Source: a virus
Taxonomy: Duplodnaviria > Caudoviricetes
Strand: one strand, 5' to 3'
Virus record (IMG/VR): IMGVR_UViG_3300010362_000030
Coordinates: 1 to 47,882 of that record
Length of the DNA stretch: 47,882 nt
Shown: positions 16,625-46,117 of the stretch, piece by piece
Position numbering within the stretch: position 1 is the stretch's first letter
Layout of the letters: every line of letters starts with the position of its first letter
Notes under the pieces: model-generated
Seen by the model: only the letters and a program-made list of their open reading frames with translations
Databases searched by the model: none
Told to the model about the DNA's origin: nothing
Position numbers and translations under genes: made by a program

Positions 16625-16653
16625 TATATACATTCGTTGAACGAAGGTATATA
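16625..16653. promoter_or_regulatory. 29-bp palindrome copy 1
   Basis: TATATACATTCG-TTGAA-CGAAGGTATATA fills the intergenic gap and overlaps the RBS. Confidence 0.7.
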
Positions 16654-16655
16654 CT

Positions 16656-26189: not shown

Positions 26190-27463
26190 TCAACTGGGTT
26201 CTTCAGCCCAGGCTTGAACATACTCTTACCATCTATACCGACTCCGACCTTCTCGATTTGGCCTGCCCGCTCCATGAGTTCCATAATGCGAACAACTGAA
26301 TGAGCGGGAACTTTCTTTCTGAGTTCGGATAAGAGGATACGTTCGGGACAAGCCCTCTTCTGCTTGGTCCAATAGTCATAGACCGTGTACCAAGCATCAT
26401 TGGCTGCTTGATAATCTCCTGACGATCCCATAGACTTAAAGATTTCTGGCATAGTACCTTCGGCCTCCAAGAGCCAGCCTAAAGCTGTCGTGAAATCTTG
26501 AAGGCTTATGATAAGGCTTCCTCGAGAGATAGTACTAATGATGCATAGCTTAAGAAGGTGGGCCGTTCTTCTTGGTATGTAATGGAGAAGCTTACCGTGC
26601 TGCGGGATAGGCTTGCCGCCTCCAGTATGCCAGTCAGTAATTGCATCAGCTGCGTCGGACTCAAAAGTAACTTGTCCAGATATAAGCCCGATGGATTTGA
26701 GATCGTACAGAAGATGGTCATGTAGTCCTTGATGGAGGACGTAGGAGTCGTCTCTGAGAGGAGGCCTGATAGGACGGTCTCCTGAATAGACAAGGATGCT
26801 TCGTGAAGTGTAGCCTTGATCCCAGGCTCCCTCAGGAAGTAAGTCGTTGAGATAACTCGGGGTTGTCCCACTGAAGAAGTTAAGTATAGGTTTATCAATC
26901 TTGACACTAACTGAGCGAGTTCGCTTTCTATCCTCGATAGGTTCTCCATCGTACACCTTCGTTAGCAGGTTAATGAATGAAGGCTCATAGGCTGGCAGGA
27001 ACACTCCGAGTTCAGAGGCGATCGCTGTGATAGCATTGTACTCAAGGTAAGCAGGTATTGACGCTGGCCTTACGATCCTGCGCTTGGCATCGGCCAGAGC
27101 ATCAATCAACGAAGCGCTGCTGACATTGGTTGGTGCTATCACGATGTCGGGTACTTGACGAAGCAGCTTCTCGATCTGAGATAAGGCTACGCTCTTGCCG
27201 CTGCCAGGGGGTCCAACTAGCATACCATAGAAGTTCGGGAACAGGTCCATACCCTGAGTACGAACCCATACCCTTCTCTCTAAGGCCGCCGCAATAGCAA
27301 AGATTGCTGCCCATAACCTGAATATCTCGGGCGAAGGTAAGATGTCCGTGTACTCAAGAAAGCCTTCTGTCCAAGATGTCAGTCTTCGGCCAACGGAGGC
27401 GGCGACGGTCATCGGTGCCCGTAAACTTTTTGAGTCCATCACCATTCTTCTCGGAGAAGGCAC
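26186..27463 (-). CDS. P-loop ATPase, DUF3987/YfjI-like putative replicative helicase
   Basis: GPPGSGKS Walker A, ASEL Walker-B-like, L..VYDG, G.TP and GYTSR motifs. Real start uncertain because it overlaps the pol end. Confidence 0.75.
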   Translation of the reverse strand: MPSPRRMVMDSKSLRAPMTVAASVGRRLTSWTEGFLEYTDILPSPEIFRLWAAIFAIAAALERRVWVRTQGMDLFPNFYGMLVGPPGSGKSVALSQIEKLLRQVPDIVIAPTNVSSASLIDALADAKRRIVRPASIPAYLEYNAITAIASELGVFLPAYEPSFINLLTKVYDGEPIEDRKRTRSVSVKIDKPILNFFSGTTPSYLNDLLPEGAWDQGYTSRSILVYSGDRPIRPPLRDDSYVLHQGLHDHLLYDLKSIGLISGQVTFESDAADAITDWHTGGGKPIPQHGKLLHYIPRRTAHLLKLCIISTISRGSLIISLQDFTTALGWLLEAEGTMPEIFKSMGSSGDYQAANDAWYTVYDYWTKQKRACPERILLSELRKKVPAHSVVRIMELMERAGQIEKVGVGIDGKSMFKPGLKNPVD

Positions 27464-28859
27464 CCCAGTTATAACCGACCTTAGCCTCGGCTGGAATTAC
27501 CAGCGTTCGACCGTTTCGTAATGGGACTGGAACCTGAATGATCTTACGCATTGCAGGTATGATCGCATCCTCCACCTCCCGTTTATCTGGATACTGTATC
27601 AAGATCGCGTCATGAACTTGTAGTAGCAGTTGAACTTTTTTGGCGCGCCAGACCTGTAGCATTCCACGATTAAGGATGTCCCCGACCGACCCTTGGGGAT
27701 CATATGCAATAGCTTCTCGAATTGTTGCATCGTCATCCCTACGTCCAAAGAACCAGCGGCGCCTTCCCGAAAGAGATACCAGAAACCCGTCTCTGCGGAG
27801 GGACTCGGCAACGGCTGCGTGCCACTTCTTGTGGGCCGGGAAGGCTCTAAAATAGACCAGTTGGAAATCGTTAATAAGATTTTGCTCGAGTTTAGTATGC
27901 TGCTCCATCGTGTAGGGTTGACCGTTATAGTTAGTACCATGCCCGAGAACCTTTGCCATGTGTCGATACGAGTGCTCTCGATAGAAGGGCTGTTCAGCAA
28001 GATCGCGATCCTTTTTAAGATCGCCGGTCCACTTAACCTTGTCACCCCAAGCCATGCGGCAGACTGAGGTGTGCAGGTCGCCGGACTCACAAGCCTCAAG
28101 GTAAGTGCCGTCATTGAACAGGTTCCACTCTATCGCGCCGACTAGTCTCGACTCGGCTTGCTCAAGATCAATGTACGCGAACTTCATTCCGGGGTCAGCG
28201 ACGAATACCTCTCTGAGAAGCTCTTCAATATTTTGGAGATTTCCTCCTGTTCCGAAGTCGCTAAGACTCGAAGAAAATCTACCAGTCGTCGTTCCTGCAA
28301 TATTGTAAGATGTTCTAATTCTTCCGTCAGGGTCGATCTCTGTTTTAAGCACTCCAATCTTTTTAGCAAGGTCTCGCATCCGAAGTATACGAGTAACAAT
28401 AGGTTGCGCGTAGAAATATTGCCGGAGTTTTTCCAGCGCATTTCGATCGACTGTAGTTCTGCCGTGTCTAAGAATAGGAGGTATTCGTAGCACCTCATAG
28501 AACAGTTTGTTAAGCTGCTGAGGAGATCGCCAGTTAAGCTGCTCGCAGCCAACTCCTCCCCAAATAAGCCAGTCAGCCTGTGATTGATATTCTCTGATTT
28601 GAGACTCATAATTAGCTATAACCTCATCCCGCTTGTCCTGATCGACAAGGACTCCACGCAGCCGCATCTCGAGGACGGGCTGCTGGAGTGCAAGTTCAAG
28701 TTCGTAGATGGCTCGGGTCACAGCATCAAGCTGTGGGAGAAGGACCTCAAGGACCTCAGCGGTCACGCAGCAATCGAGGCCGTTATAGAGCCAGAGCTTA
28801 TCCGTCTCCGAGAGTGGGAGCGTGGCGGGTGTAAGCTCGTGGGTCTTATAGATCTTCAA
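27354..28859 (-). CDS. polA: Family A DNA polymerase, C-terminal part (ExoIII + polymerase domain)
   Basis: YNGLD (ExoIII), GTTTGRFSS, NLQNI, motif A DLEQAESR, motif B RHMAKVLGHGTNY, motif C VHD. TTG start. Confidence 0.92.
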   Translation of the reverse strand: MKIYKTHELTPATLPLSETDKLWLYNGLDCCVTAEVLEVLLPQLDAVTRAIYELELALQQPVLEMRLRGVLVDQDKRDEVIANYESQIREYQSQADWLIWGGVGCEQLNWRSPQQLNKLFYEVLRIPPILRHGRTTVDRNALEKLRQYFYAQPIVTRILRMRDLAKKIGVLKTEIDPDGRIRTSYNIAGTTTGRFSSSLSDFGTGGNLQNIEELLREVFVADPGMKFAYIDLEQAESRLVGAIEWNLFNDGTYLEACESGDLHTSVCRMAWGDKVKWTGDLKKDRDLAEQPFYREHSYRHMAKVLGHGTNYNGQPYTMEQHTKLEQNLINDFQLVYFRAFPAHKKWHAAVAESLRRDGFLVSLSGRRRWFFGRRDDDATIREAIAYDPQGSVGDILNRGMLQVWRAKKVQLLLQVHDAILIQYPDKREVEDAIIPAMRKIIQVPVPLRNGRTLVIPAEAKVGYNWGAFSEKNGDGLKKFTGTDDRRRLRWPKTDILDRRLS

Positions 28860-29175
28860 GTCTGCGATACTCTACTTCGAGACCGAAGATACCAGCTGCT
28901 ATGATATCGTTGTCCATTCCTGGAGAGATACCATGATCCCTGTAAACAACAAGAGCCTCAGCCTTCATCATCCAGCAATGCTCAGCCTCTATACCCCATC
29001 GGCGCTGAGTTGTGTCCTCATCATCAAGGACTTGAGTATAGAGAAGATGCGAAACTAATGCAGCATCACCTCTGATGAAACAATCCTTAAGGCATTGCCG
29101 AGCGTACTCGACGTTTTCCTCAACTGTTCTCCCGTTACTCTTTGAGTAAGGGGAGGCAAGAATGACTCGTCTCAT
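28846..29175 (-). CDS. DUF4406/nucleoside 2-deoxyribosyltransferase-like small protein
   Basis: ILASPY, SHLLYTQVLDD and GISPGM motifs. Overlaps both polymerase halves. Confidence 0.65.
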   Translation of the reverse strand: MRRVILASPYSKSNGRTVEENVEYARQCLKDCFIRGDAALVSHLLYTQVLDDEDTTQRRWGIEAEHCWMMKAEALVVYRDHGISPGMDNDIIAAGIFGLEVEYRRLEDL

Positions 29176-30263
29176 TCATCCCTCTTAATAGTTCCATGCT
29201 TACCGCGTGAGCGCATAAGCTTCCATGAGGCCTCATTTGTGTAGACGCTGCCAAGGTACCCAAGGCCCTTCGGTGACTCTGGCTGAAGCGCGTGATGCAA
29301 GAGCATCGTGTCGTTTGCTAATCCCTTCACAACGAAACCGTAGGACTTCCATAGGAAAGTGATATCGTACAAAGCGTTCTGGGCTGTCTTGTCACATGGG
29401 AGAAGGAGCACTTTAATAACCCAGGACCAAGCACGGACCTCAGCTGCAGAGTCAGGCCAATAACTTCCTGCTGTTCCTCTTGGGTCAGCAAAAGGGACAA
29501 CGATAGCGGTAGCTGGTGATGGACTGAACCCAATACAAGTGATCTGACTGCCGGAAGTTTCCACGTCGAAGGCGATGCGCTCGGCATCCTTGAGATGCGT
29601 CTCATAGTACCACTCCAAATCTTTTAGGTCTGGTGCTGTGTAAATTACTCTAGTGGGTCGTCGGACTTCAGGATACGCCGACTCTCGCTTAGCCTTGGCA
29701 AGGTCGAGGACTGTGACTGGTCGGAGGGACCAGTCCCGGAGGATTGCTGCGGGGTGGAAGATAGGGAGACTCTTACCGTAAGGTGAGTGGGTAACAGTGC
29801 CCCGTATTTTACTAATACCTGAATTGCGCAGGACTGCCCACGAAGCCGTATTTCCCAGAAGGACGGAAATGACAGGCCGCACTTCTTGCAGCTCACTAAA
29901 TAGACGTTCGAGTTCTCCCTTGTATTCAGCTCGAATATACTTCCCCGGTCTAAGTGGGGGCAGTCCAAGCTTATCTTCGGCTTTGGGGACGCAGAGCGTT
30001 TCGATGTCATTGCGGACTGGCCTAAGGTTAAAGACGTTGGTTGTGAAGAACTGTGGATACCTATCCCAAAGAAGTGCAACATAAATTGGATCACGCTTGA
30101 ACCACCATTGCCTGATAAGGTCACGGTCAGTGGTGCTCAGGGATATCATCCCTGCATCGTGCATCATCTCGAATAGGGCGACGCCTGATGAGCCAACAAG
30201 GGGACGTTTGAGTTTGTCCTCGTTCTCACCCCAGGCCTCACCTATGAAAGCTATCTTATCCAT
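29172..30263 (-). CDS. Uracil-DNA glycosylase-like domain fused to N-terminal part of 3'-5' exonuclease (polymerase N-half)
   Basis: GEAWG, TNV, LLGNTA and HPAAILR (family-4 UDG-like), then FDVET (ExoI), AQNALYD (ExoII), DTMLLHH and KGLGYL. Confidence 0.85.
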   Translation of the reverse strand: MDKIAFIGEAWGENEDKLKRPLVGSSGVALFEMMHDAGMISLSTTDRDLIRQWWFKRDPIYVALLWDRYPQFFTTNVFNLRPVRNDIETLCVPKAEDKLGLPPLRPGKYIRAEYKGELERLFSELQEVRPVISVLLGNTASWAVLRNSGISKIRGTVTHSPYGKSLPIFHPAAILRDWSLRPVTVLDLAKAKRESAYPEVRRPTRVIYTAPDLKDLEWYYETHLKDAERIAFDVETSGSQITCIGFSPSPATAIVVPFADPRGTAGSYWPDSAAEVRAWSWVIKVLLLPCDKTAQNALYDITFLWKSYGFVVKGLANDTMLLHHALQPESPKGLGYLGSVYTNEASWKLMRSRGKHGTIKRDE

Positions 30264-32527: not shown

Positions 32528-32537
32528 GACAGCCTCA

Positions 32538-32566
32538 TATATGCCTTCGTTGAACGAAGATATATA
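32538..32566. promoter_or_regulatory. 29-bp palindrome copy 2
   Basis: TATATGCCTTCG-TTGAA-CGAAGATATATA, 10 nt upstream of the ParB-MTase start codon. Confidence 0.7.
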
Positions 32567-32610
32567 CCCCGCCTGGGTCTGCTGAAAGGCTAAGAGAAAC
32601 CCAGGCGGGG
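32567..32610 (-). terminator. GC-rich hairpin downstream of SSB-like gene
   Basis: CCCCGCCTGGGT ... ACCCAGGCGGGG inverted repeat with a large loop. Confidence 0.5.
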
Positions 32611-35067: not shown

Positions 35068-35258
35068 GTGACTTGCTCGTAGTTGTTGGCGAAGTATTCC
35101 CCACGGATCAGCCACTTGTCCTTGGGGTTCTTAGGATCATGGGCGATCCAGTCACCGTCCACAGGCGGACCTTGGTCAAGGCCGGTGACTCCACTGAGTT
35201 CCATGCCTGGGGTCCAGCGGGTGGCCTCGATGAGGCCCTTCTTCCGATAGATTGTCAT
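35064..35258 (-). CDS. Conserved small phage protein
   Basis: YRKK..IEA.RW...GDWI...F...YE pattern. Confidence 0.7.
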   Translation of the reverse strand: MTIYRKKGLIEATRWTPGMELSGVTGLDQGPPVDGDWIAHDPKNPKDKWLIRGEYFANNYEQVT

Positions 35259-35488
35259 AGTCCAAGGTCCTCCAATGACAGGTCCTTGCTGCCCTTCGGA
35301 CCTTTCGCTACTACGTGCTTCGTGGCACCAGCTTGCTTCTGGCCGAGCATGAACTGCGCACGAGCAGCCCGATAGGCCTCGACCATTGTGAGCAAAGGGT
35401 CTTTCTCACCCTTGGCTATCGCCTCGTCCCGCTTCAGCGTTAACTGGAGTGGGTCCATCGCGAAGAGTTCCGCCAGCGTGTCCGTCAC
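35255..35488 (-). CDS. Hypothetical protein ending SLEDLGL
   Basis: GTG start with a GGAGG RBS. Overlaps the 3' end of 35406-35807. Confidence 0.7.
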   Translation of the reverse strand: MTDTLAELFAMDPLQLTLKRDEAIAKGEKDPLLTMVEAYRAARAQFMLGQKQAGATKHVVAKGPKGSKDLSLEDLGL

Positions 35489-35807
35489 TTTGACCTCCGT
35501 CGTTCTTCTCACCCATAGCCTCACTGTAGCCGACCTTCTTCTTGGTCAAAGCAACAGGGTCAGTCATTGAGCTGACATCGACAGGGGTATAGGTGCCCTC
35601 GGTGACAGCCTGGTTCATAGCATCAAGCTTAGTAGTCAACGCAAGGTTCTTAAACCGAGCATCAACTTGCTTGATCTCCTTCTCGATCTCCTTCTCACCA
35701 GCCTGTCGAAAGGATGCAGGTGGTAGTTTATTGGTCAAAAGTAATTTCTCGAGAGTGTCAGCCTGCGTGGCATTAGACAGGTAAATTTCTGCTACAAGTA
35801 CTGGCAT
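35406..35807 (-). CDS. Hypothetical protein
   Basis: TAATG coupling with the upstream gene. Confidence 0.55.
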   Translation of the reverse strand: MPVLVAEIYLSNATQADTLEKLLLTNKLPPASFRQAGEKEIEKEIKQVDARFKNLALTTKLDAMNQAVTEGTYTPVDVSSMTDPVALTKKKVGYSEAMGEKNDGGQSDGHAGGTLRDGPTPVNAEAGRGDSQG

Positions 35808-35998
35808 TATTCTTCCTCCATCTCTCGATCACTGAGCTTCTCAATGATCTTCGCCTTCACCTTCTGAATATGCAAACGAACAAGCTTCCGAATAATCACG
35901 CTTCCTCCTGCTGGATACATATACTTTAACTCGTCCATGTCTCCATCGTAAAGGTTAACCAAATGCTTTCGCAGGGGAATACGATACTCAGTGGTCAT
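35807..35998 (-). CDS. Small protein, possible ribbon-helix-helix DNA binder
   Basis: Strand-helix-helix pattern: KHLVNLY..D..EL...S.IIRKLVR.HI. Confidence 0.5.
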   Translation of the reverse strand: MTTEYRIPLRKHLVNLYDGDMDELKYMYPAGGSVIIRKLVRLHIQKVKAKIIEKLSDREMEEE

Positions 35999-36188
35999 TT
36001 TTGTAGAGCCATATCTGTTGAGGGCACTCAGGATCGCCGCCGACTATAATAGAGATGGTTGAGAACTCAGGTACTTCGCGGCGGATAGCATAGAGCTTCT
36101 GACGGACTCGCTCAACGTCGTCAGGCGTCTCGATGACGAGACCGAGTTGCTCATTGAGGGCTTGATAGAAAAGAGAAGCATCGAGCAT
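35988..36188 (-). CDS. Hypothetical protein
   Basis: ATG with a GAGG RBS. Confidence 0.6.
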   Translation of the reverse strand: MLDASLFYQALNEQLGLVIETPDDVERVRQKLYAIRREVPEFSTISIIVGGDPECPQQIWLYKNDH

Positions 36189-36260
36189 GTTCGACCTCAA
36201 GAATAACGGTGGACTTACGCGAAGGGCTACTGGCCCAACAGTCGCTGCCACCGTCCTACA

Positions 36261-36788
36261 CTAGGCGGCCTTCTCTGCGGGCTGAAGCTCCGCAATGAGG
36301 CTGTCGAGATCGTCGGCGACCTCCTTCGCAGCAGACTTGGCCTGTTCCACGCGGTCCTTGGCCATCTCCCAGATGTCAGGCCGCTTCCCGCCGTCGATCA
36401 GACCGCGAGCGAGATCGGTGATCTGCTTGAGGGAGTAGTCAGTCAGCTTCCGTCCAGTGGACTTGATCTTATCGCGGACGATACCGACTGCGATGGTGAT
36501 AGCCTCAGAACGGATAGGATCACGACGCCCGCCACCACCAGCACGGATGCCGAACTCGTAGGCCTCGGCATAGGTGGAAACCGCCGCCTGGATTGCAGCA
36601 TGATCCGCAGCCGTCGCGAGCAAATCCTTGACCTGCTTGCGAATGTTGTTGCCGATGTTCTCACGAAACACCTGATTGAGTTGCGAAGCTTCGTTCGCAG
36701 AAAGAACATCTCCCTCTTTATAGGGCTCGATCACGTCGAAGGTCTGCCCTTCGATCGTCATCTGAGTAATCGGGTACGACTCAGCCAT
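36261..36788 (-). CDS. Hypothetical helical protein, probably highly expressed
   Basis: Strong RBS, own promoter, 175 aa. Confidence 0.8.
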   Translation of the reverse strand: MAESYPITQMTIEGQTFDVIEPYKEGDVLSANEASQLNQVFRENIGNNIRKQVKDLLATAADHAAIQAAVSTYAEAYEFGIRAGGGGRRDPIRSEAITIAVGIVRDKIKSTGRKLTDYSLKQITDLARGLIDGGKRPDIWEMAKDRVEQAKSAAKEVADDLDSLIAELQPAEKAA

Positions 36789-36830
36789 CTGTCACCTTCC
36801 TCTCCTGTTGACAGGAAAATTTCCTGCGAC

Positions 36831-36864
36831 ATTGTACCTTACCATATATACCAGCATAAGTCAA
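36831..36864 (-). promoter_or_regulatory. Sigma70-like promoter
   Basis: TTGACT-17-TAAGGT (an alternative TACAAT lies 5 nt further). Palindrome CAGGAAA-A-TTTCCTG at 36812-36826 just downstream. Confidence 0.55.
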
Positions 36865-36882
36865 GCTGCTGAAACAAAAATA

Positions 36883-37242
36883 TTACTGTAGGGCCTGGGA
36901 ACCGTTAGTCTCGGCTTTCTTCTTTTCTTTGAGAATATTGTCGAAGACAGTTGCGAACTTCGCCATTCTCTCTTTGAGCCTGTCCATTTCCCTGATGCCG
37001 TAGGTGGCTATAAGCATTTCAAGAGGCCACGGAGTTTTCTCATCCTTCTCCATGATGGCGGTTAGGGCCTCGATAACGCAAGCATGTCGATGGGCGTCGA
37101 AGGCTGCGATGAACACATCCTTGCGAGCAAGTCTATCCAGGCCGTCGGTATTGAAGATTGCCATCATGATAGAGACCTCAATCTTCGTTGAGTCTGCTGC
37201 CTTCTCGAAGGTTTCCTTCCATTCCTCTAAACTTGCTGTCAT
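36883..37242 (-). CDS. Hypothetical protein
   Basis: ATGA coupling, GGAGG RBS. Confidence 0.65.
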   Translation of the reverse strand: MTASLEEWKETFEKAADSTKIEVSIMMAIFNTDGLDRLARKDVFIAAFDAHRHACVIEALTAIMEKDEKTPWPLEMLIATYGIREMDRLKERMAKFATVFDNILKEKKKAETNGSQALQ

Positions 37243-37568
37243 AAGTCCTCCACTGTGTAAGCTTCGCTGCTACGCTTCTCGATGATCAGGGTTGTCTCGT
37301 CAGGAGAACCCGCAGGCGGGATGCGAAGTTGGAGCTTGTCGTAGACTGACGATCCGTGCTGAGGATCATCCTCTGGATAAATCCTAGCATTCGCGTCCCG
37401 ATCCTGAGTTCTGAACTTGTTCATCCTGTGACGAAGGCGAACGGCAGCAGACCGATTGTCAAGTCGGACTCTGATGCCGTTGCCACCCTCGCCGATGCGG
37501 TCGAGAGCCTTCTCAAAAAGCTCTCGAGCGTCATCGTAGGCATACATGCTGTTAGATGCTGGCGTCAT
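37239..37568 (-). CDS. Hypothetical protein
   Basis: 109 aa, overlaps the helicase end. Confidence 0.65.
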   Translation of the reverse strand: MTPASNSMYAYDDARELFEKALDRIGEGGNGIRVRLDNRSAAVRLRHRMNKFRTQDRDANARIYPEDDPQHGSSVYDKLQLRIPPAGSPDETTLIIEKRSSEAYTVEDL

Positions 37569-39012
37569 TGCTGTGAAACCCCGTTACACTGGCGAGGAAG
37601 AGTTCTTGTTTTGGTCGAGTCTCAATGACGTATTTGACGTTCTTTTCTTGTTCGATGTCCTCGTCCGAAGTGGCCCACTTCGAAGGTATGCGCCAGGGGT
37701 CAAGGTGAAATACTGTGTCCCATTCAAGACCTTTAGCTTTATGACCACTGAGAAGTTGGATGGGTCCTTCACTCTTAAAAAGATGCTCTGCATAGCCGAT
37801 GGCTTCAGAAAGGGTATTTCCGAACGAAGCAAAGACACGTAAACATTCGGCCTTGTCATAGATCACTCCTGGATTGCGAGCCTTCCTCATATGCTCTTCG
37901 GACCAGCGCTCGATAGCTTCAAAGGTCTGTGCTTGGGTCATTCTCTCGTCACCAAGCTTCTTCATGATCCTGATGAGGCCAGGACCAAGGTCAGAACCCA
38001 CCAGTTGACAGCCACGGCCATCCCTGAGAAGGTTAAGGGCCATGCTGAACAAGGGGGCATTGTTGCGGCAGATGATTGCCGCGCTGTCAGGGACGTGCCT
38101 ATGGTTCCACTCGCCGAGGGTGGCGATCAAGCCTTCAGGCGCGTCGTCACGCCATCTCATATGAGGAGCACGCTCCCTTGCACGTCGGACTACTGAGATG
38201 GGGTTGCGGAAGGAGATGGATAGGATCATCTCCCTCATGTTGAACCATTCCTTCAGAACGGACATACTCTGAGTGTGGGCTCCTCGGAAGGCGTAAATAC
38301 TTTGGTAGGGGTCTCCGACAGCCATGAAGCGGTCAACGACGAGCTTCCGAAGCATTCGATGGTTAAGGGGGTTGAAATCTTGTGCCTCATCTCCCATAAC
38401 CAAGCGGAACTGGGGCCAGCTTCCTCCGAAGATAACAGGCATATATATCTGGTCGTCGAAGTCGATAAAGCCACCGAAAGCAAGATTGATGCTACGGAGC
38501 AGGACTTCCTCGACAGCATCCACGGTCTCGGGGCTCGGCTCCTCGTCAAGGCTCCCATAGAACTCCTCCTTGGTAATGAACCGATCAGCGTCTGGATACT
38601 TGCCTTGAGGCACGTAGCCACGCGACTTAGCCTTGCGAACGATGTCCATAATCTCAGCGAAGTCGAGTTCGTAACGGAGATGGCGAGGGACATCGTTCAA
38701 GTAGCCCTTGAGAATATCGCCGTTCTTCTTGGTATCGACGATCAGCCTTCGGCCAGTGGCCTTGCTCCAAGCGCTGTGGCCAATGCTGTTCATTGTCTTG
38801 CAGAGGGTGTTCGGCGGGAGTTTCTTGGAGAGAGCTTCCGCAATGCGCTTGTTAAAAGCAAGCGACAGGATGGGCTTATCGGGAGGTAAAGCCTTACACA
38901 CAAGTTCCAGAGTGGTGGTCTTAGCGGCACCTGCAAGAGCATTGATAAGAAGGCTTTCATTGGTAGTAACCGCTGCCTCGATGATAGCTTTCTGTTCGTC
39001 AGTGGGGGTCAT
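37552..39012 (-). CDS. UvrD/Rep-like SF1 helicase
   Basis: ALAGAAKTT, LAFNK, DEAQD, VGDPYQSIYAFRGA, SFR.P and HKAKGLEW motifs. Confidence 0.92.
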   Translation of the reverse strand: MTPTDEQKAIIEAAVTTNESLLINALAGAAKTTTLELVCKALPPDKPILSLAFNKRIAEALSKKLPPNTLCKTMNSIGHSAWSKATGRRLIVDTKKNGDILKGYLNDVPRHLRYELDFAEIMDIVRKAKSRGYVPQGKYPDADRFITKEEFYGSLDEEPSPETVDAVEEVLLRSINLAFGGFIDFDDQIYMPVIFGGSWPQFRLVMGDEAQDFNPLNHRMLRKLVVDRFMAVGDPYQSIYAFRGAHTQSMSVLKEWFNMREMILSISFRNPISVVRRARERAPHMRWRDDAPEGLIATLGEWNHRHVPDSAAIICRNNAPLFSMALNLLRDGRGCQLVGSDLGPGLIRIMKKLGDERMTQAQTFEAIERWSEEHMRKARNPGVIYDKAECLRVFASFGNTLSEAIGYAEHLFKSEGPIQLLSGHKAKGLEWDTVFHLDPWRIPSKWATSDEDIEQEKNVKYVIETRPKQELFLASVTGFHSNDASI

Positions 39013-39024
39013 GGTTTGCCTCTG

Positions 39025-39216
39025 TCACTGGATGAAGTGTCTAGTACTTGCCATCTCAAGAGAATAGAGTTTCTCTTGCATTCCTTTGAAGTTATCTGCG
39101 ATTTTCCTCCAGGGTTTATCGGGTTGATGAAGCGCCATCTGGCGCGCGGCCGACTCTGCCTCTTTGAGGCTGTCGATCATCTTGTAGAACAAGTCATGTT
39201 CTCGAGGGGTGACCAT
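39025..39216 (-). CDS. Hypothetical protein
   Basis: 63 aa from ATG 39216. Fits the operon. Confidence 0.55.
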   Translation of the reverse strand: MVTPREHDLFYKMIDSLKEAESAARQMALHQPDKPWRKIADNFKGMQEKLYSLEMASTRHFIQ

Positions 39217-39577
39217 CTTGCATCCCTGTGATGGCTTGCTCGACTGCCTTGTAGGCGTCCTTGCTGCCCTCATCGGCGTCAGTTGGTGACTCCTTCAAGG
39301 CGTCAAGGATAATGTTTCCAGCGGTCTGGAGCTTCGTGCGGACCTCGATGAAGCGGGACTGGTAGTAGTCGAGCTTGTTCTGGGTCCGAACTAGTTCAGC
39401 CTTGAGAATGCCGTTCTGCTCTTTCGCCAGTTCCAACTGGTTCTCCAGCTTGTTCAGCCGATGAGCGTTCTCGGCCAACTGGCCCTCCATCTCCTCGAAG
39501 TGACTGGCGACCCTTGCGGCAGCTTGAGACATGGTACGCGAAGGGGTGACTGGAACAGGTGCCTTTCCATTACTCAT
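39194..39577 (-). CDS. Coiled-coil hypothetical protein
   Basis: AGGAGA RBS, heptad pattern. Confidence 0.7.
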   Translation of the reverse strand: MSNGKAPVPVTPSRTMSQAAARVASHFEEMEGQLAENAHRLNKLENQLELAKEQNGILKAELVRTQNKLDYYQSRFIEVRTKLQTAGNIILDALKESPTDADEGSKDAYKAVEQAITGMQDGHPSRT

Positions 39578-39586
39578 ATCTTTCTC

Positions 39587-39793
39587 CTATGCTATTTGAG
39601 ACTCAGGTACCGACGAAGGCTTACTTCGCGGCTCGAACTTCTTGCAAACATAGTCAGGGTCTATCATGCCCTTGACAAGAGTACAAGAACCAAGGGGACT
39701 GCCGCGCTTGTACATGCTGCAAACGCCACAGCGACGATTGGTGAAGCTTGCTGGACGATAGTTCGTCTCAGTCTTGGTCATGGTCGGTGCCAT
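39587..39793 (-). CDS. HiPIP-like Cys4 protein
   Basis: Y...CGVC..Y...C.LVKG.I.P..VC..F.P pattern. Confidence 0.65.
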   Translation of the reverse strand: MAPTMTKTETNYRPASFTNRRCGVCSMYKRGSPLGSCTLVKGMIDPDYVCKKFEPRSKPSSVPESQIA

Positions 39794-40005
39794 TAGCTGA
39801 ACCTCCCTATGAACTTCTCGGCCTCATCGAAGTCCTGGTCTTGGATGATCTTCAAGGCCATCATCGTGAGGTGCTGGTTGATCTGCGTTTGCTGGTGCCC
39901 ATTCATGTCAGTGATGAAGCCCTCTAGGGCTCCTTGAAGATTGCCCTTGGCGAGGGTGTTCGAGGCACGGAGCTGGCACCAAGTGATGTACTCGCTGCGA
40001 GTCAC
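39793..40005 (-). CDS. Hypothetical protein
   Basis: GTGA coupling, GGAGAGG RBS. Confidence 0.6.
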   Translation of the reverse strand: MTRSEYITWCQLRASNTLAKGNLQGALEGFITDMNGHQQTQINQHLTMMALKIIQDQDFDEAEKFIGRFS

Positions 40006-40298
40006 AGAGGCACCTCTCCGAAGTACCGAAGCTCGGTTTCGTCCTTGAACTCCCGCTCCAGTGGCCGCTTCCACTCGTTCTTGTCGAAGTCGAGGAACCA
40101 GCCAGTGTTGACTCGGTGAGTGGCCTCGAAGATGCCGACCATTGTTCTGTGACGACAAGTCGGCTTGTTGCCTTGGAAGCAGGGACAGTTAACGTGCCGA
40201 GTGACTGGCATATCATAGATCGCTTCGACGTTCAGGTCATCGTCGAACTTGACACAGCGATACCAGCCAGGCCAGCTGTTCATTTTATAGAGGCTCAT
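40002..40298 (-). CDS. SWIM-type zinc-finger protein
   Basis: CPC...CRH motif. Confidence 0.65.
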   Translation of the reverse strand: MSLYKMNSWPGWYRCVKFDDDLNVEAIYDMPVTRHVNCPCFQGNKPTCRHRTMVGIFEATHRVNTGWFLDFDKNEWKRPLEREFKDETELRYFGEVPL

Positions 40299-40636
40299 AG
40301 TCCGAGGTCCTCAAGGGTTAGCGTTAACCTGCCTTTAACAGGAATATCAAAGGTTTCCTGCACGATGATACGCTTACGATCGTTGACTGAGTAATGATCG
40401 GGCCAATCATCAGGAACCCGATCGTCAAAGGTCGCTGGCCGAGGATGATTACCTGCGTTGTTGATGTCGCTGGTATCCATCAAGTCCTCGAGGTTCCAGG
40501 ACATGAAGGGATAAGCGCGATGGCCGCTGGTTGGAATGATCCAGTTCTCTTCGCCATTCTTGTAGGGCTCGAGTTTCTCAGCAACGTCGAAGGCAGGTTC
40601 GCCTCTGACCTTGTGAAGGATAAGGTACTGTGTCAT
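40295..40636 (-). CDS. Hypothetical protein ending TLEDLGL
   Basis: ATGA coupled at both ends. Confidence 0.75.
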   Translation of the reverse strand: MTQYLILHKVRGEPAFDVAEKLEPYKNGEENWIIPTSGHRAYPFMSWNLEDLMDTSDINNAGNHPRPATFDDRVPDDWPDHYSVNDRKRIIVQETFDIPVKGRLTLTLEDLGL

Positions 40637-40884
40637 GGCTTTGTTCTCGTTGCATGAAGGACTACCATGTAGTTGCAGCCCTTCTCTTTGATGTCAGTGG
40701 TCACAGAACAATTATCGCAAGTCCCAAGTGTGAAGAAGGTATTGGGACTGTCCACAGTTAGTCTGTTTCCACAGCCAGAGCAGGTGAACTTCTGATAGAC
40801 GAGACCGCCCTCAGAGATCACCTGCTTGGCCTGCTCAAGAACGCTATCCCAAGGATAGTCGTTGTATTTAACTTCCTTGGGCAT
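40633..40884 (-). CDS. Zinc-ribbon protein
   Basis: CSGC...CDNC motifs. Confidence 0.65.
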   Translation of the reverse strand: MPKEVKYNDYPWDSVLEQAKQVISEGGLVYQKFTCSGCGNRLTVDSPNTFFTLGTCDNCSVTTDIKEKGCNYMVVLHATRTKP

Positions 40885-41101
40885 CTTTCGCCTTGTCGGC
40901 TGCGTCGTTGGCTGAGGTCACAGCATCATCAAGGTTGCTGATAGCCTCCTCCATAGCCTCACCCTTCTCGCCTTGCTGAAAGCCCTCGGACAGGTTGTCG
41001 AATGACTCCTGCTCCTCGTCGCGGATTTCCTCCAGCTGCGATGCGAGATCACGCAACTTGCCCTCGATCTCGTCGAGCTTCTTTCGCCTTTCAGCATTCA
41101 T
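40868..41101 (-). CDS. Conserved acidic helical phage protein
   Basis: MN.ERRK.L...EEQE.FDNL.E..Q.GEKGE.MEEAI pattern. Confidence 0.75.
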   Translation of the reverse strand: MNAERRKKLDEIEGKLRDLASQLEEIRDEEQESFDNLSEGFQQGEKGEAMEEAISNLDDAVTSANDAADKAKDAQGS

Positions 41102-41463
41102 AGTCCTAAGTCCTCCAATGTTAAGGGTTTATCCTTGGCGAGAGCCTTTTCCACTTTTCGATGCTCACGCTTCTCTCGCCGCATGTGCTTGAGCATCTTT
41201 TCGATATCGTACTGAACTGGATCACCCTTCGTGCCGAGCCAAGGCTTCTTGCCCTCGCGCTCCATTCGACTGCGATCACGGAGCAGGTTCAAGAGAACCG
41301 CCCAGCCTCGTTGGCTGACATTCTTGTCATCGAAGAAACAGTTGTCCAAGGGAATGACCTTGGTGCTTGGTCGCTCGTCGCCGATAGGCGGAACGCCAAT
41401 CATGAGCCTGTCGCCAGCAAGCCATATGCTGACGGCGTGCGATGGCAAAGGGTACTGGTTCAT
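41098..41463 (-). CDS. Hypothetical protein ending TLEDLGL
   Basis: ATGA coupled at both ends. Confidence 0.75.
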   Translation of the reverse strand: MNQYPLPSHAVSIWLAGDRLMIGVPPIGDERPSTKVIPLDNCFFDDKNVSQRGWAVLLNLLRDRSRMEREGKKPWLGTKGDPVQYDIEKMLKHMRREKREHRKVEKALAKDKPLTLEDLGL

Positions 41464-41615
41464 AGTTTATCCTCGAGAAGGCTTTGATCCTTGAGAAGGT
41501 TTAGAACCTCCTCCATCGCGTGAATATATCCCTCGCGTTGGCTATCATTATCAGGAAAATAAGGCGTTGTCCTCGCAGCCTCAATTTCCCTGGTGATATA
41601 TTCAGCGAGTGTCAT
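41460..41615 (-). CDS. Small hypothetical protein
   Basis: ATGA coupling, AAGGA RBS. Confidence 0.55.
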   Translation of the reverse strand: MTLAEYITREIEAARTTPYFPDNDSQREGYIHAMEEVLNLLKDQSLLEDKL

Positions 41616-42691
41616 AGCTTGTATTCCTTGTCCACGAAGCCCAGGTCCTGGTTCCCAACCAGCATCCATTTGATCCAGGTCCTGTGATTGGAATAGTGTC
41701 TCCAGTGGCCGCGGCGGAAATGGAGCCGCTTGGGTGTGCCGGGTTCATGCTCATCACAAGGTGTGAGCTTGGGCCGACGGGCGAGGCTGACAATGTGATG
41801 CGAGAACTTCGGCAAAGGCTTGCCTATGGAACGCGCGACGTTTCGCCTGTATGGTTCGCGCATTGGAGTGGCTTCGGCCACTTCAGCCTCAAGCATGATG
41901 CAAATGGCCTGGATGTTGTCGTCGATGAACTGAAGAACCTTCAACAAAGGATGCTTCGGGTCCGTGTCCAGCTGCTTCAGAATATCGGAAGGGGCAAGCT
42001 TCAGCCAACCATGCTTGCATTTGAACCATGTGAAGCTGTGAAGATGGCCCGCATCGTTCTCGAGTCCGATGTAAACAGCCCGAACCCCGCCCTTGAACGA
42101 GAACTCGAATATGGTGAAGGGGTATGGCAACGCCGCTCTAACATTTTCGCCCGCACCCTCGATCTTCGCGTTGTCAAGGACCTTGGCCCAATTATGCTTG
42201 ACCAAGATGATGTGGGCCTCGCATGGAAGATCGTGAGGAACAATCTTCGCGGCGACTGAATGTTGGGCCTCCTCGAGTTCGATTGGACCAAGGAGCCATG
42301 CCCGAATGTCCTCAGCGATCAATTCGCTTTCGCGCTCAGACATCGTTTGCTTTTCGCGCCTTGACTTCGCCCGTTGCTCCTCAGCGAAATCACGCTTTGC
42401 AAGCCATGTCATATCCCTGGCCCATTGAGCTGGACTGATCTCTTTCCCAAGCTTTTCGCCGGTATCCCTTGAGATGTATTGCCACTTCTCGTCAGGTGGC
42501 AACCACTGTTTCGTTAGCCCTGGAGAAAGAACCGAAGCCGAAACCAACTCGGTCTGGCTGTTGATGCACTTCTTGATGTGAGCAAGCATTACCGCATTCG
42601 CCGCTGGATCGTTTTGGTTCCAGGGCGGCGGTTGATCGAAGGTTCGCTTAAACATGGTATGCACCCCTGCATATATGGTCGCAGCAGACAT
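41612..42691 (-). CDS. Conserved phage protein of unknown function
   Basis: C-terminal P.R.HFRRGHWRH...WI...G..LG.V.K.Y motif. Start uncertain. Confidence 0.75.
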   Translation of the reverse strand: MSAATIYAGVHTMFKRTFDQPPPWNQNDPAANAVMLAHIKKCINSQTELVSASVLSPGLTKQWLPPDEKWQYISRDTGEKLGKEISPAQWARDMTWLAKRDFAEEQRAKSRREKQTMSERESELIAEDIRAWLLGPIELEEAQHSVAAKIVPHDLPCEAHIILVKHNWAKVLDNAKIEGAGENVRAALPYPFTIFEFSFKGGVRAVYIGLENDAGHLHSFTWFKCKHGWLKLAPSDILKQLDTDPKHPLLKVLQFIDDNIQAICIMLEAEVAEATPMREPYRRNVARSIGKPLPKFSHHIVSLARRPKLTPCDEHEPGTPKRLHFRRGHWRHYSNHRTWIKWMLVGNQDLGFVDKEYKL

Positions 42692-42769
42692 TTCCCTGAA
42701 CGCCTGTTGACCAATCTACCATGATAAACCATCTGGAGGTCGAAATCAAGCTCCTTGAACAAATAAATG

Positions 42770-42798
42770 TTGACAACTGAAGTGTTTTGTGATACTGT
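42770..42798 (+). promoter_or_regulatory. Sigma70-like promoter for isolated + strand gene
   Basis: TTGACA-17-TACTGT. Shares TTTGTGATA with the promoter at 46118. Confidence 0.65.
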
Positions 42799-42828
42799 AA
42801 TCTGTCTTGATAATCAAGGAGTCTCATC

Positions 42829-43119
42829 ATGGGAAAGACTGTATTCGACCCGCCGACTCCAGGCCAAAAGACTATCGGTGGGGGCTCGGCCCCAAGGGTT
42901 GCTGGTGGCTTCGAGGAAAGGAAGATGCCGACGAACAAGGACGTTGGCGACTCCTGTGCTGGCCACATCACGCCACAGGTCGCTGCCTCTTACAAGTACG
43001 ATGACGACTTCGCGCCGACTGGTGACAAGCGTCCTTTGCGAGTACATCATGCTGGTGGCCTCCAACCTGCTGATGGTGTGCTGCGCCCAGGTCATAAGTC
43101 GGCGCGATCTGTTAAGTAA
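42829..43119 (+). CDS. Stand-alone hypothetical protein opposite the early operon
   Basis: AAGGAG RBS, own promoter and terminator. Confidence 0.7.
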   Translation: MGKTVFDPPTPGQKTIGGGSAPRVAGGFEERKMPTNKDVGDSCAGHITPQVAASYKYDDDFAPTGDKRPLRVHHAGGLQPADGVLRPGHKSARSVK

Positions 43120-43122
43120 GGA

Positions 43123-43146
43123 AAGGGGCCTTTCGGCCCCCTTCTT
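43123..43146. terminator. Probable bidirectional intrinsic terminator
   Basis: AAGGGGCC-TTTC-GGCCCCTT hairpin between convergent stop codons. Confidence 0.7.
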
Positions 43147-43241
43147 CAATCCATGTATGCTCCGAAGTAGTATATGTACAGGAGCACCCAGAACGAGGCT
43201 GTGAACCAAAAGGCCCAGCCCGCGCCATTGAACTTACTCAC
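43146..43241 (-). CDS. 31-aa hydrophobic peptide
   Basis: GTG start overlapping the upstream gene; AGWAFWFTASFWVLLYIYYFG. Confidence 0.4.
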   Translation of the reverse strand: MSKFNGAGWAFWFTASFWVLLYIYYFGAYMD

Positions 43242-43593
43242 GTGAGCCCCCATACTTGAAGTAGAGTTCCAGTGCAAGGGCCTGATGCCTAATATAAGGC
43301 GAGAAGTATTCCTCAGGCTCCTTGCCCCAACGCACGCCCAGGTGCATTTCACGCTTTCGCTGTGAGCGTGGGCCATCGCGCAGGAGATAAGCGTCGAGTT
43401 TACCTGGAGTTCCGTACAGGACACTCTGCTCTTGCCAGCGCTCTACGATATAGGGGATATCGTAGAGATACTTGACGCCTGAGCCAAGATCTGTGATCTC
43501 GCCTCCTGCGATGCACTGTGCTGCCTCCTCGAGGCTGGGCAAGTAAACCAACTCACTTGCCCAAGGATTGAAGTCGTGCCAGTGTGCCATCAC
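43234..43593 (-). CDS. Hypothetical early protein
   Basis: GAAAGG RBS, coupled. Confidence 0.65.
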   Translation of the reverse strand: MMAHWHDFNPWASELVYLPSLEEAAQCIAGGEITDLGSGVKYLYDIPYIVERWQEQSVLYGTPGKLDAYLLRDGPRSQRKREMHLGVRWGKEPEEYFSPYIRHQALALELYFKYGGSRE

Positions 43594-43802
43594 TTGCCTT
43601 TCCTTTCTGCGATTGCCCGAGACTCTTCAGCCGACAGCGCCCGACGGGCAAGGGCTCTGTCATTGACTGCCTTGATGAGCAAACGACTGAGGCGGGTTAG
43701 CGCCTCAGCCGGGTATTCGCGGTAGACCGCTGCGCGAAGGGCTTGGTCAGCCTCCACGCAACGGGCTGCTGCTGCGAAATACGCATCACTGGTCTTGGTC
43801 AT
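43590..43802 (-). CDS. Hypothetical early protein
   Basis: GGAGG RBS. Confidence 0.65.
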   Translation of the reverse strand: MTKTSDAYFAAAARCVEADQALRAAVYREYPAEALTRLSRLLIKAVNDRALARRALSAEESRAIAERKGK

Positions 43803-43971
43803 CTTGCCTCCAAGCCCGTTGGGCTTCTTGCAGGATTTCCCATACCTTGCGCCTCGAGATCAGCATGAAGCTGTCCCAGGACTCAAGCCACTCGGCCTCG
43901 GCCGCCGTGAGGCGGAACTCGCCGAGATACTGGCCGCGCCAATAGACCTGATACATCATCGGTCGAACCAC
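43786..43971 (-). CDS. Hypothetical early protein
   Basis: Fits the operon. Start may be the ATG at 43959. Confidence 0.5.
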   Translation of the reverse strand: MVRPMMYQVYWRGQYLGEFRLTAAEAEWLESWDSFMLISRRKVWEILQEAQRAWRQDDQDQ

Positions 43972-44048
43972 AGGAACATTACAGTCATGTTCAGAATGAT
44001 GACCAATGGAAGGGCCTGGATGGCCGTTATGATGAGGAAGGTTTCCAT
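43956..44048 (-). CDS. 30-aa hydrophobic peptide
   Basis: METFLIITAIQALPLVIILNMTVMFLWFDR*, TAATG coupling. Confidence 0.45.
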   Translation of the reverse strand: METFLIITAIQALPLVIILNMTVMFLWFDR

Positions 44049-44212
44049 TAGTTCACCACACTGTCCAAGGTCCAGGCCCTGACCGTAGCTTGCTGGCCCA
44101 CGATGCCCCTGTCCTTGAGATTGGCAAGGGCTGCGTAAGCCTTTTCTCTCGATGAATAGGCTGACACGAAATAGCCCCTCATCGTGATGATCCAAACTTG
44201 CTCAGTTCGCAT
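44048..44212 (-). CDS. Small hypothetical protein (54 aa); not in ORF track
   Basis: MRTEQVWIITMRGYFVSAYSSREKA..., with an AAAGGA RBS. Confidence 0.6.
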   Translation of the reverse strand: MRTEQVWIITMRGYFVSAYSSREKAYAALANLKDRGIVGQQATVRAWTLDSVVN

Positions 44213-44396
44213 TGATCAGTCCTTTCCATGCCTTGCAGACATCTTCGATCGGAACCTGCTTGCCGAATACATGAGAACGCAGCGGCGGATTGGGCCTGCA
44301 ATCATGATAGACTGCAAACCCGAACCATGCTGCCATGAGGCCGGTGCTGAGGCCCATTAGAGTGAAGCCGATGATTGCATCCCACTTACCGGACAT
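44202..44396 (-). CDS. Small membrane protein
   Basis: AAGGAG RBS, TM segment. Confidence 0.55.
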   Translation of the reverse strand: MSGKWDAIIGFTLMGLSTGLMAAWFGFAVYHDCRPNPPLRSHVFGKQVPIEDVCKAWKGLINAN

Positions 44397-44568
44397 CGCA
44401 GTCTCTCCTTGCCTTGGCCAGTGCCTCGCGATTAACACAATCGAGGACGATCCGACCATGCGGATGCTCGTTGTGCCATATGCAGTATCGAGCCGTTGAG
44501 TACCAGCCGAAGCGGACGAACTGGCCACCGCTGTCGTACTGGCACATGAGGATGAGCTTGTTTATCAT
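44386..44568 (-). CDS. Small hypothetical protein
   Basis: ATG one base after the upstream stop. Confidence 0.5.
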   Translation of the reverse strand: MINKLILMCQYDSGGQFVRFGWYSTARYCIWHNEHPHGRIVLDCVNREALAKARRDCDVR

Positions 44569-44569
44569 C

Positions 44570-44818
44570 TCAGAGCCCCAAGTCCTCGAGGGTGACGGGC
44601 GCGTCGGCCTGCTGGAGCAGCTTTGCCTTGAACTGATCATTGCAGGCCATGCTGCGGCTTGAACAAGCCCCGACGCGGACTGCGCCGCTTGAGCCGAGGA
44701 AGTAGAACCCGCCCTTGGCCCTTGTGAATGTACGATACTTGCCGGACTTGCCTTGCACTTCGTGCTCGCCGAGCCTTGCGAGGCCCAGAGCGTATTGGTC
44801 TTGCAGAGTCTTAGCCAT
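44570..44818 (-). CDS. Early protein ending TLEDLGL
   Basis: GAAAGGCAA RBS. First gene after the promoter at 44865-44893. Confidence 0.75.
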   Translation of the reverse strand: MAKTLQDQYALGLARLGEHEVQGKSGKYRTFTRAKGGFYFLGSSGAVRVGACSSRSMACNDQFKAKLLQQADAPVTLEDLGL

Positions 44819-44864
44819 TGGATTGCCTTTCATGCAACTCGACCCATGAGCGAGTCGATTGTGT

Positions 44865-44893
44865 AGTGTAACATAACTGCGATCGCGATGCAA
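44865..44893 (-). promoter_or_regulatory. Sigma70-like early promoter
   Basis: TTGCAT-17-TACACT with an extended -10 TG. Confidence 0.65.
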
Positions 44894-44913
44894 GCTACTG
44901 AATTGCGCGCGGT

Positions 44914-45175
44914 CTAGTTATTCTGATGGTGCTCCTAGGTTGTCCTGATTGTCTGATTGCCATTTGCCTGCGGGAGCGTTAAGCCGCGAAGGTATATATC
45001 GTGAGGCTGGCCGTGCCGTTACTTTCTTAGAAAAAAAAAAATTTTAAAGAAGAGAAGCGAAGTCAGCCTGGGGCGAAGCATGAGGCTGGTATATGTCTTC
45101 GCCGCGCGAAGGTATATACCCGTTCCGGGTAATTAGGTAATCAGGGCAATGTAGGCGCACCATCAGGGCAATTAG
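44914..45175 (+). other. Long non-coding rod-like structured element (ncRNA or folded ssDNA)
   Basis: 44914-44960 pairs with 45129-45175 (35 WC, 9 G.T, 3 mismatches). Nested stems 44986-45000/45088-45102 and 45004-45011/45062-45069. Confidence 0.7.
45090..45118. promoter_or_regulatory. 29-bp palindrome copy 3 (half-sites also at 44987-44998 and 46074-46085)
   Basis: TATATGTCTTCG-CCGCG-CGAAGGTATATA. Confidence 0.7.
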
Positions 45176-45206
45176 CAAAAGAAAGACCTGGGCATTGCTG
45201 CCCAGG
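45175..45206 (-). terminator. Intrinsic terminator
   Basis: CCTGGGCA-N4-TGCCCAGG followed on the - strand by TCTTTCTTTTGC. Confidence 0.75.
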
Positions 45207-45233
45207 CCCCTTCCGTTTGATGGAAACTGGGGC

Positions 45234-45674
45234 TTAGAGCCCCAGGTCCTCCAGGCTGGTCTCGCCTGCCGCATTGCGCGCGGCTGCCAGTCTGGCCTCG
45301 GCCGCAGGCCGCAACGTGGCCTCGTGCTTCACGACATAATCCGCGACCAGTTTCTTCATGTCCACCTTGGACTTGGCAATGCCCTTGCTGGCCAAGGTCT
45401 GCTCGATGACCAGCTTCGCCTGCGCGGCCATGTCCTGGGCCACCTTGTCGGTAGTCCGTTCGCCTGCCGCGCGGACAACGCCTTCATACATTGAGGCCAG
45501 TTTCTTCTCGGCCATTGCGCGCGGGTCTTTGCCCGAGTCTGCCGTGGCAGCCGCATGGCTGTCCATGAGAATGTTACGGCAGCCGATATACAGGACATGC
45601 GCCAGGACTTCCGGGCTGAACCGATCGTAGTCCACGTCGAGAGTGATACCCTTACCAATAGCTACCTGTGTCAT
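45234..45674 (-). CDS. First - arm gene; Ala-rich helical protein ending SLEDLGL
   Basis: ATG 45674 with a GAAAGGCAA RBS. The longer ORF-track extension to 46040 looks non-coding. Confidence 0.8.
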   Translation of the reverse strand: MTQVAIGKGITLDVDYDRFSPEVLAHVLYIGCRNILMDSHAAATADSGKDPRAMAEKKLASMYEGVVRAAGERTTDKVAQDMAAQAKLVIEQTLASKGIAKSKVDMKKLVADYVVKHEATLRPAAEARLAAARNAAGETSLEDLGL

Positions 45675-46117
45675 GACTGTTGCCTTTCTGCAACTACCGC
45701 CTAGGACCATTCCCAGGCCGATTTGAGGACGATGACCTACGATTGTGGCGAGAATGTGACGTTTTGGGCTGGCCGCAAAAATTCTTTTCGCTGCACTGCA
45801 GCATGGATTTTGCCGCATTGCAACAGGCTGGCCGTTGCCCAGCCCATTGTCGCACGCAGCCCGCTGTGGCACGAATGCCACTGTCACCCCCATGCCACTG
45901 TGGCCCATTACCCCTTGGCCAGCCTTGGCACTGTTGCGGGAATGCCAGTGGTTGCGGATGAAACTATTGCTGCGCGTGGTCGGGGTGGGGGTGGGGGCCG
46001 GCGAGTCCGGCCGCCCGCGCGCGGGCAAGGGGGTCACCACGAAAGGTGCTGCATATCAGATATATATCCCCTGTATATACCTTCCCGCGCTGCTTAGCCG
46101 ACTGGCCCAGAAAGATC

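Follow-up and report, generated by a model that had tools for sequence, protein, structure and literature searches.

The closest described precedents for a short peptide shared by the ends of unrelated phage proteins are the C-terminal tails through which T4 gp43, gp55 and gp33 bind gp45; as presented in passages of the study concerned, they form a short acidic and hydrophobic epitope which is interchangeable and is carried by unrelated proteins behind a variable linker (PMC2988020). The bacterial beta sliding clamp is engaged through clamp-binding motifs (CBMs) in a pocket that is conserved across bacteria; E. coli Pol IV ends RQLVLGL, LF substitutes for LGL without loss, position 3 favours Asp and the Gln is described as ‘not necessary’ (parts of PMC11139829). 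The host clamp is also engaged by Mu C via two CBMs and by Mor via one which comprises DLF only (PMC12867686, in part). For the Clp proteases, sections of PMC8138137 describe the SspB layout (domain, flexible linker, short tail), the IGF/IGL loops that dock in ClpP, and ClpX degrons of ssrA and MuA class. Here we describe a C-terminal peptide, [ST]LEDLGL, that ends five non-homologous early proteins of a podophage genome, IMG/VR record IMGVR_UViG_3300010362_000030 (hereafter the window, i.e. the whole virus record of 47,882 bases). No description of a shared phage tail of the LEDLGL type was found in a literature search that covered main texts, mostly without subscription papers.

The peptide is kept on at least five unrelated families, in the early arm only and behind a Lys/Ala/Pro-rich linker, and from this pattern we consider that it probably serves as a tethered docking motif which fits one pocket on a shared partner. 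In the window all five carriers are encoded on the - strand. The first early gene (45234..45674) specifies a family 1b protein of 146 amino acids ending GETSLEDLGL; its tag and TAA stop (45234..45257) are overlapped by no gene, and after it comes a terminator-like hairpin with a 13-pair stem and a T-run (45182..45211, -) that would be the terminator originally proposed at this place. The second early gene (44570..44818; predicted start, in a frame open from 44893) encodes an orphan body of ~82 residues with TLEDLGL and TGA at 44570..44593. The remaining three tags are ATGA-coupled and belong to a 121-residue family 18 protein with a beta-hairpin and helix body (41098..41463; TLEDLGL and TGA, 41098..41121), a 113-residue family 25 protein (40295..40636; TLEDLGL and TGA, 40295..40318) and the family 6 core protein (35255..35488; SLEDLGL and TGA, 35255..35278). 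The last of these consists of an N-terminal [DS][LI]xELF-x-RDP helical hairpin, a Lys/Ala/Pro linker and the tag; its start is most likely the GTG at 35488, with GGAGG upstream, giving a protein of 77 amino acids.

Scanned over its full length in all six frames with the loose hexamer [LIVMF][ED][DE][LIVMF]G[LIVMF], the window gave six matches. Five lie on the - strand directly before stop codons, ending at 35255, 40295, 41098, 44570 and 45234; the sixth, at 26732, is on the + strand, non-terminal and in a non-coding frame. The original prediction, made from the letters of the window, had placed the five identical ends at these genes and held that their carriers share nothing else, and both points stand: once the tails are trimmed, the bodies are mutually unrelated (hhalign probability ≤1.4%; BLAST E ≥1.4). 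It was right also that the first two genes of the - arm are both tagged and that no + arm protein is (0/31 + strand genes called in the window). The variable tag codons which it listed are correct, but GAG GAC is constant in all five tags, so that two codons are invariant. Similarly, the 44570 gene has no ATGA overlap, as was claimed, but an ATG begins one base beyond its stop; within the window, therefore, only the 45234 gene is clearly uncoupled.

Relatives were found via the helicase in 80 IMG/VR loci (81 with the window). The 26 near-complete genomes comprise the window and 25 of the 80 records picked for length, and their genes were called by a simple in-house finder which missed the 35255 gene and the gene after 44570. 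The strict tag, defined as [LIVM]x[DE][LI]G[LI] at the protein end, occurs on 33 of the 929 early-arm proteins of these genomes and on none of the 793 late-arm proteins, and the early-arm restriction is thus upheld in the relatives; a looser pattern gives 46 early-arm and 4 late-arm ends. Since the strict pattern is met internally at 6 of 123,214 early-protein positions, five terminal copies in one genome are far beyond chance. The exact [ST]LEDLGL was found internally at 0 of 344,910 positions, and in the 80 loci all 52 matches to Phi-x-[DE]-Phi-G-Phi-stop are on the helicase strand.

The form of the tail which retains the Gly (G-form; consensus [LI]-[SDT]-L-x-[DE]-L-G-L after the K/A/P linker) ends 39/68 members of family 6, 20/33 of family 18, 6/18 of family 25 (others of which end RR[IF]), 10/96 of family 1 and 16/16 of families 32/51, a single homologous family not present in the window. 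In 13 further core early families it is not found at the end of any of the 726 members. Family 6 is present in 68 of the 81 loci, including the window, and comprises 2,321 clusters at 50% identity without a family name; the tagged proteins of families 1, 6, 18 and 25 and of the 44570 gene have no family in Pfam, PHROGs or NCBIfam. The counterpart of the 45234 gene is tagged in G001, G003, G004, G007, G010 and G020. No relative of the 44570 protein was found. A DNA scan of all viral contigs for the codon-restricted tag gave 19 stretches on 18 contigs, six of them short frames of ≤50 codons and one a 338-amino acid open reading frame (ORF) outside the group; because the other 12 carry the group's core genes, the tag appears to be largely a property of the present phage group. 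This 338-amino acid ORF, with a SLEDLGL end, was seen in locus L257, in a stretch without the group's core genes.

The public sequencing run in which the window is best represented, a soil metagenome, may be its source, and no RNA run is listed as containing it. Cultured phages are distant from the window phage (helicase identity ≤32%). The Caulobacter podophage Kuura (OQ067476; PMC9959647, in part) has the early module in common with it, including a DNA polymerase which is 40.5% identical, proteins of family 1 (E 1e-20) and family 6 (E 2e-7), and counterparts of the primase-helicase, UDG-exonuclease, Sak4 and nuclease. Two Kuura early proteins have tag-like ends, L[NS]IDDL[FL]S, which unlike the window tag are Gly-less. 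Passages of the Kuura publication have its early genes annotated as hypothetical and do not mention the tag (PMC9959647). Since Kuura has the same early module, an alphaproteobacterial host is plausible for the window phage; GTDB genomes gave three weak family 1 matches, none naming a host.

Three of the five window tags overlap the start of a following gene, and the peptide could in principle be a by-product of ribosome-binding site (RBS) and ATGA coupling, or of the duplication of DNA tails, with no peptide function. We regard this as very improbable. The codons do bear the imprint of coupling. One locus, the most-tagged, was taken from each of 46 helicase clusters formed at 70% identity; 29 of these 46 loci carry a tag, and of their 63 tags 34 have ATGA or GTGA at the stop. 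Coupled tags use GAG in 15/16 cases and CTA or TTA for the last Leu in 22/26; the constant GAG GAC of the window points the same way, and codon identity between tags is slightly higher within genomes (75/223, 34%) than between them (1533/5348, 29%). However, 29 of the 63 tags have no such overlap, and uncoupled tags keep the peptide with GAG in 5/9 and CTA or TTA in 3/20; several tags moreover have a separate GGAG of their own downstream. The RBS overlap would thus shape the codons and not the peptide. The motif is not limited to RBS/ATGA-coupled stops, the outcome that the original prediction had named as counting against it, and the relatives keep the peptide with differing codons, in line with its claim of conservation at the peptide level and not as a DNA repeat. 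The count against a null for RBS and ATGA coupling, which it had proposed, gives 15 tags in 448 ATGA-ending genes where ~0.03 are expected from the position frequencies of 431 untagged ATGA-ending genes (7.5e-5 per gene); 151 of the 448 are late-arm genes, and these are without the strict tag. Judged from these counts, the tag is dual-coding in places and selected as a peptide.

The anatomy of the tail is best seen in family 6. Among 229 homologues, retrieved with a profile that contained the tail, 85 have the G-form (64 at the exact terminus and 21 with 1–4 extra residues), 64 have another residue for Gly, 27 end L-[LFM] and 53 fit none of these patterns. G-form tails have Leu at -3 in 95% and at -1 in 91%; position -5 is E (33%), K (23%), D (19%), G (12%) or S (11%). 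The linker is 25% K, 21% A and 12% P. Covariation is found inside the body and extends little to the tail (best tail-body z 2.9), and the composition of the linker together with the lack of clear tail-body covariation suggests a free tether. In 192/229 homologues the N-terminus has a tag-like [DS]-[LI]-x-E-L-F within the helical hairpin. A longer, fused form was absent from 8,000 candidates, although as evidence this is weak. The ESM Atlas gave nothing usable for family 6, and searches of PDB sequences returned only weak helical matches. In the window the family 6 gene is flanked by an RHH-like gene and an exonuclease-Sak4-SSB cluster. A 133-amino acid ORF (35406-35807) intervenes between these RHH-like and family 6 genes; it overlaps the family 6 gene by ~80 bases and is missing at the corresponding place in G001.

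Family 1 is represented twice in the window. The family 1a paralogue of the 45234 gene (36261..36788, -; 175 amino acids) is untagged; at its end stands an acidic-Leu helix related to the tag, with AA after it. Its model has two domains (pLDDT 92). No Foldseek match with E ≤0.001 was obtained for either the family 1a or the family 18 model, and the ESM Atlas returned only unnamed viral clusters (0.84-0.86) for family 1a. HMG box 6l34 can be aligned with the predicted C-domain over 68/68 residues with an rmsd of 2.9, but the VIA-align scores of HMG boxes (Z 4.6-5.3) are within background, the best Z being 5.8, and this assignment was rejected other than as a lead.

Tags of unrelated families within one genome are more alike than expected. 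They agree at 7.36 of 12 positions (59 pairs) vs 6.19 ± 0.16 when genomes are shuffled within families (p=0.001), and the likeness is raised alike at upstream, central and trailing positions. Thus, L070 has DDS[IV]TLEDLGL three times, L241 and L244 have FTLEDLGL, L033, L038, L044 and L046 have terminal LGLL or LGIL across families, and L044 and L056 terminal LL. We infer from such matching one reader per lineage, although old recombination between tails, or different hosts, could also be its source. The original notion that these proteins plug into one hub gains indirect support from the genome-specific variants common to unrelated families.

Other ends are found in the same families. In seven loci, chosen after the pattern was seen, [KR]R[IFVL] ends 13/78 core-family ORFs, vs 0/879 elsewhere, and the G-form ends 1/78 vs 90/879; the six of these loci that are in a quick tree all belong to one helicase clade (SH-aLRT 99). 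Ends of this kind occur in L058, L059, L061, L063, L066, L067, L068, L260, L262 and L263, on proteins of families 6, 25 and 0, Sak4, the polymerase and a small terminase family (G017). Because they often overlap AGGAGG, part of the signal may be RBS-driven. Ahead of such ends an LxLGL-like motif is often retained. In family 1 the end is AA in 33/96 members, sometimes straight after a tag-like helix, and resembles the ssrA class of ClpX degron. The G-form is found on 0/34 polymerases, most of which end Phi-L-[DH]-R-x-Phi after a basic linker; tag-like polymerase ends are confined to G018 and Kuura. The UDG-exonuclease ends T-[ILV]-K-[RK]-[DE]-[DE] in many relatives. The ends of the polymerase and UDG-exonuclease (window 27354-28859 and 29172-30263) are possibly further docking motifs.

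As to the partner, we tentatively place the host beta sliding clamp first, by analogy with known clamp ligands, while rating it as no better than possible. This ranking rests on the occurrence of both CBM endings, on the LGL end of Pol IV, on the freedom of clamp ligands to exchange LGL for LF and to dispense with Gln, and on the precedent of Mu C and Mor, whose double or Gln-less motifs engage the host clamp. L-x-L and L-L/F endings, Asp before Leu, acidity and terminal position are candidate likenesses to the CBMs of Pol IV and Mu C/Mor; CBM position 4 is L/M and is followed by F/L in both spacings, at position 5 or at position 6, and family 6, like Mu C, has the motif at both ends. As in T4, unrelated proteins present an acidic and hydrophobic C-terminal epitope at the end of a linker. 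T4 differs in that no phage clamp is detected here, the replicative polymerase is untagged and the tag usually ends L-G-L. The T4 tails reportedly have a matching [ST]-L-x-x-L spacing, the letters LDF not being found in the text of the T4 tail paper. If the host clamp is the partner, [STD]-L-x-[DE]-L would make a single turn of helix, and the final L-G-L (in variants L-x-L or L-L/F) would put two leucines into the hydrophobic pocket of the clamp. By means of the tail, several early regulators would be brought to DNA-bound host clamps, for which T4 gp33/gp55 and Mu C would be the precedents; phage transcription and recombination would thereby be coupled to replication, or host clamp clients outcompeted; family 6, with similar motifs at both ends, would be a bivalent clamp binder. 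The clamp of the host would be used because a Pfam scan of 58 window proteins, in which several early proteins are without any family, detected neither an RNA polymerase nor a sliding clamp or loader; a phage-encoded clamp of T4 type, one of the hubs originally put forward, was thus not found, though a divergent one may be present among the early proteins without a family. Several points weigh against a clamp. Gln is absent from CBM position 1 (Q at -6, -7 or -8 in 0/64 G-form tails; a Q-type CBM end on 0/929 early proteins), position 2 is E/K/D/G/S and not aliphatic, an extra invariant Leu stands at -6, and the CBM register is restored only by a one-residue insertion. The usual clamp clients (polymerase, exonucleases, helicase, Sak4 and SSB) are untagged, and one clade is largely without a terminal tag (1/78). 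Genome-specific variants fit a clamp poorly, its pocket being conserved. The tail frequency among the 229 homologues is also inflated, since the retrieval profile includes the tail. Finally, Phi-x-x-L-G-L is a common helix cap, so that likeness to any single known motif is weak evidence.

The genome-specific variants are explained best by a phage-encoded reader, which we hold to be doubtful and place behind the host clamp. Here the family 1 protein, the hairpin of family 6 or the SSB/Sak4/helicase, for example, would receive the tail, so that the tagged proteins come together on a phage nucleoprotein or replication complex, and the tag variants would co-evolve with the reader. The large, almost wholly uncultured podophage group would then possess a lineage-coded C-terminal address tag that assembles early takeover proteins on a co-evolving hub of its own, one clade having been re-coded to basic KRR[FI]. 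The association of the codon-restricted tag with the group's core genes agrees with this, as do the lack of an acidic tail on the phage SSB-like protein and the conserved C-terminal motifs that the polymerase and UDG-exonuclease have of their own. On the other side, no candidate reader is identified, the tail and body of family 6 hardly covary, and tail-shuffling or different hosts could also yield the variants. Engagement of a Clp protease is unlikely, and comes third. The tail could tether its carriers to the ClpX N-domain in the manner of SspB, in which case the tagged bodies would serve as phage-encoded adaptors for substrates of the host. Alternatively, it could be a ClpP ligand of IGF/IGL type or a degron read by an adaptor. 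The architecture of the carriers is that of SspB-type adaptors (likeness being limited to the architecture), G-form ends include IGL, LGF and MGF, i.e. the [LIVM]G[LF] tripeptide of the Clp loops, and the same families elsewhere have AA and [KR]R[IFVL] ends, similar to ssrA- and MuA-class ClpX degrons (parts of PMC8138137). Unlike in the Clp systems, the tail is on at least five unrelated bodies, none of which resembles a known adaptor or was found to have an adaptor fold; the Gly, invariant in the Phi-G-[FL] of the ClpP-docking ATPase loops, is replaced in 64/229 family 6 tails, and the carriers are not ATPases. Nor does the tag have the AA or basic-hydrophobic end of a C-terminal ClpX degron, being acidic and ending in Leu. 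Because the motif is also kept where AA or RR[IF] ends follow it, it is not itself the terminal degron; of the degron role offered in the original prediction, the pure C-degron version is weakened by this and by the extra residues that often follow the motif. Less likely still is some other host hub, such as RNA polymerase or a sigma factor, a nucleoid protein or a chaperone. It would accord with the absence of a detectable phage RNA polymerase and with the candidate operator palindromes described below, both of which suggest that the phage must steer host transcription, but no known ligand of such hubs was found, or tested, as a match to the motif.

The tag flags which orphan early proteins of a very widespread, undescribed phage group may act through one partner; since it would mark proteins with one partner, a single common target could be assigned to several families that are absent from Pfam and PHROGs. 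Should the partner be DnaN, the tail would be a Gln-less clamp motif invisible to standard searches, and clamp-coupled phage regulation would extend beyond T4 and Mu. Should it be phage-encoded, it would represent a co-evolving tag-reader code. The Caulobacter phage Kuura makes either possibility testable.

The remainder of the genome is that of a podophage. Its + arm contains the portal, major capsid, nozzle and ejection genes, and its - arm DNA polymerase A, UDG-exonuclease, a ParB-methylase, a Sak4-like annealase, a PD-(D/E)XK nuclease and a UvrD-like helicase. A putative ejection protein of 1,855 amino acids (18504-24071) shows weak matches to LPD22 and GNAT acetyltransferase. Two paralogous small core genes (35988-36188 and 37239-37547) form family 0, which is present in 76 loci; they have no family match and are candidate regulators. 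Between genes, GTATATACCTTC forms inverted repeats separated by 7 bases at 16624-16654, 32537-32567 and 45089-45119, and half sites lie at 44988-44999 and 46073-46084 (11 matches vs 1.75 expected); the copy at 16624 spans the RBS of the 16656 gene. The sequence TATATACC occurs in eight copies in both the window and G001 and in three or fewer in each of the other 24 genomes. Both the GTATATACCTTC inverted repeats and TATATACC are candidate operators or promoters.

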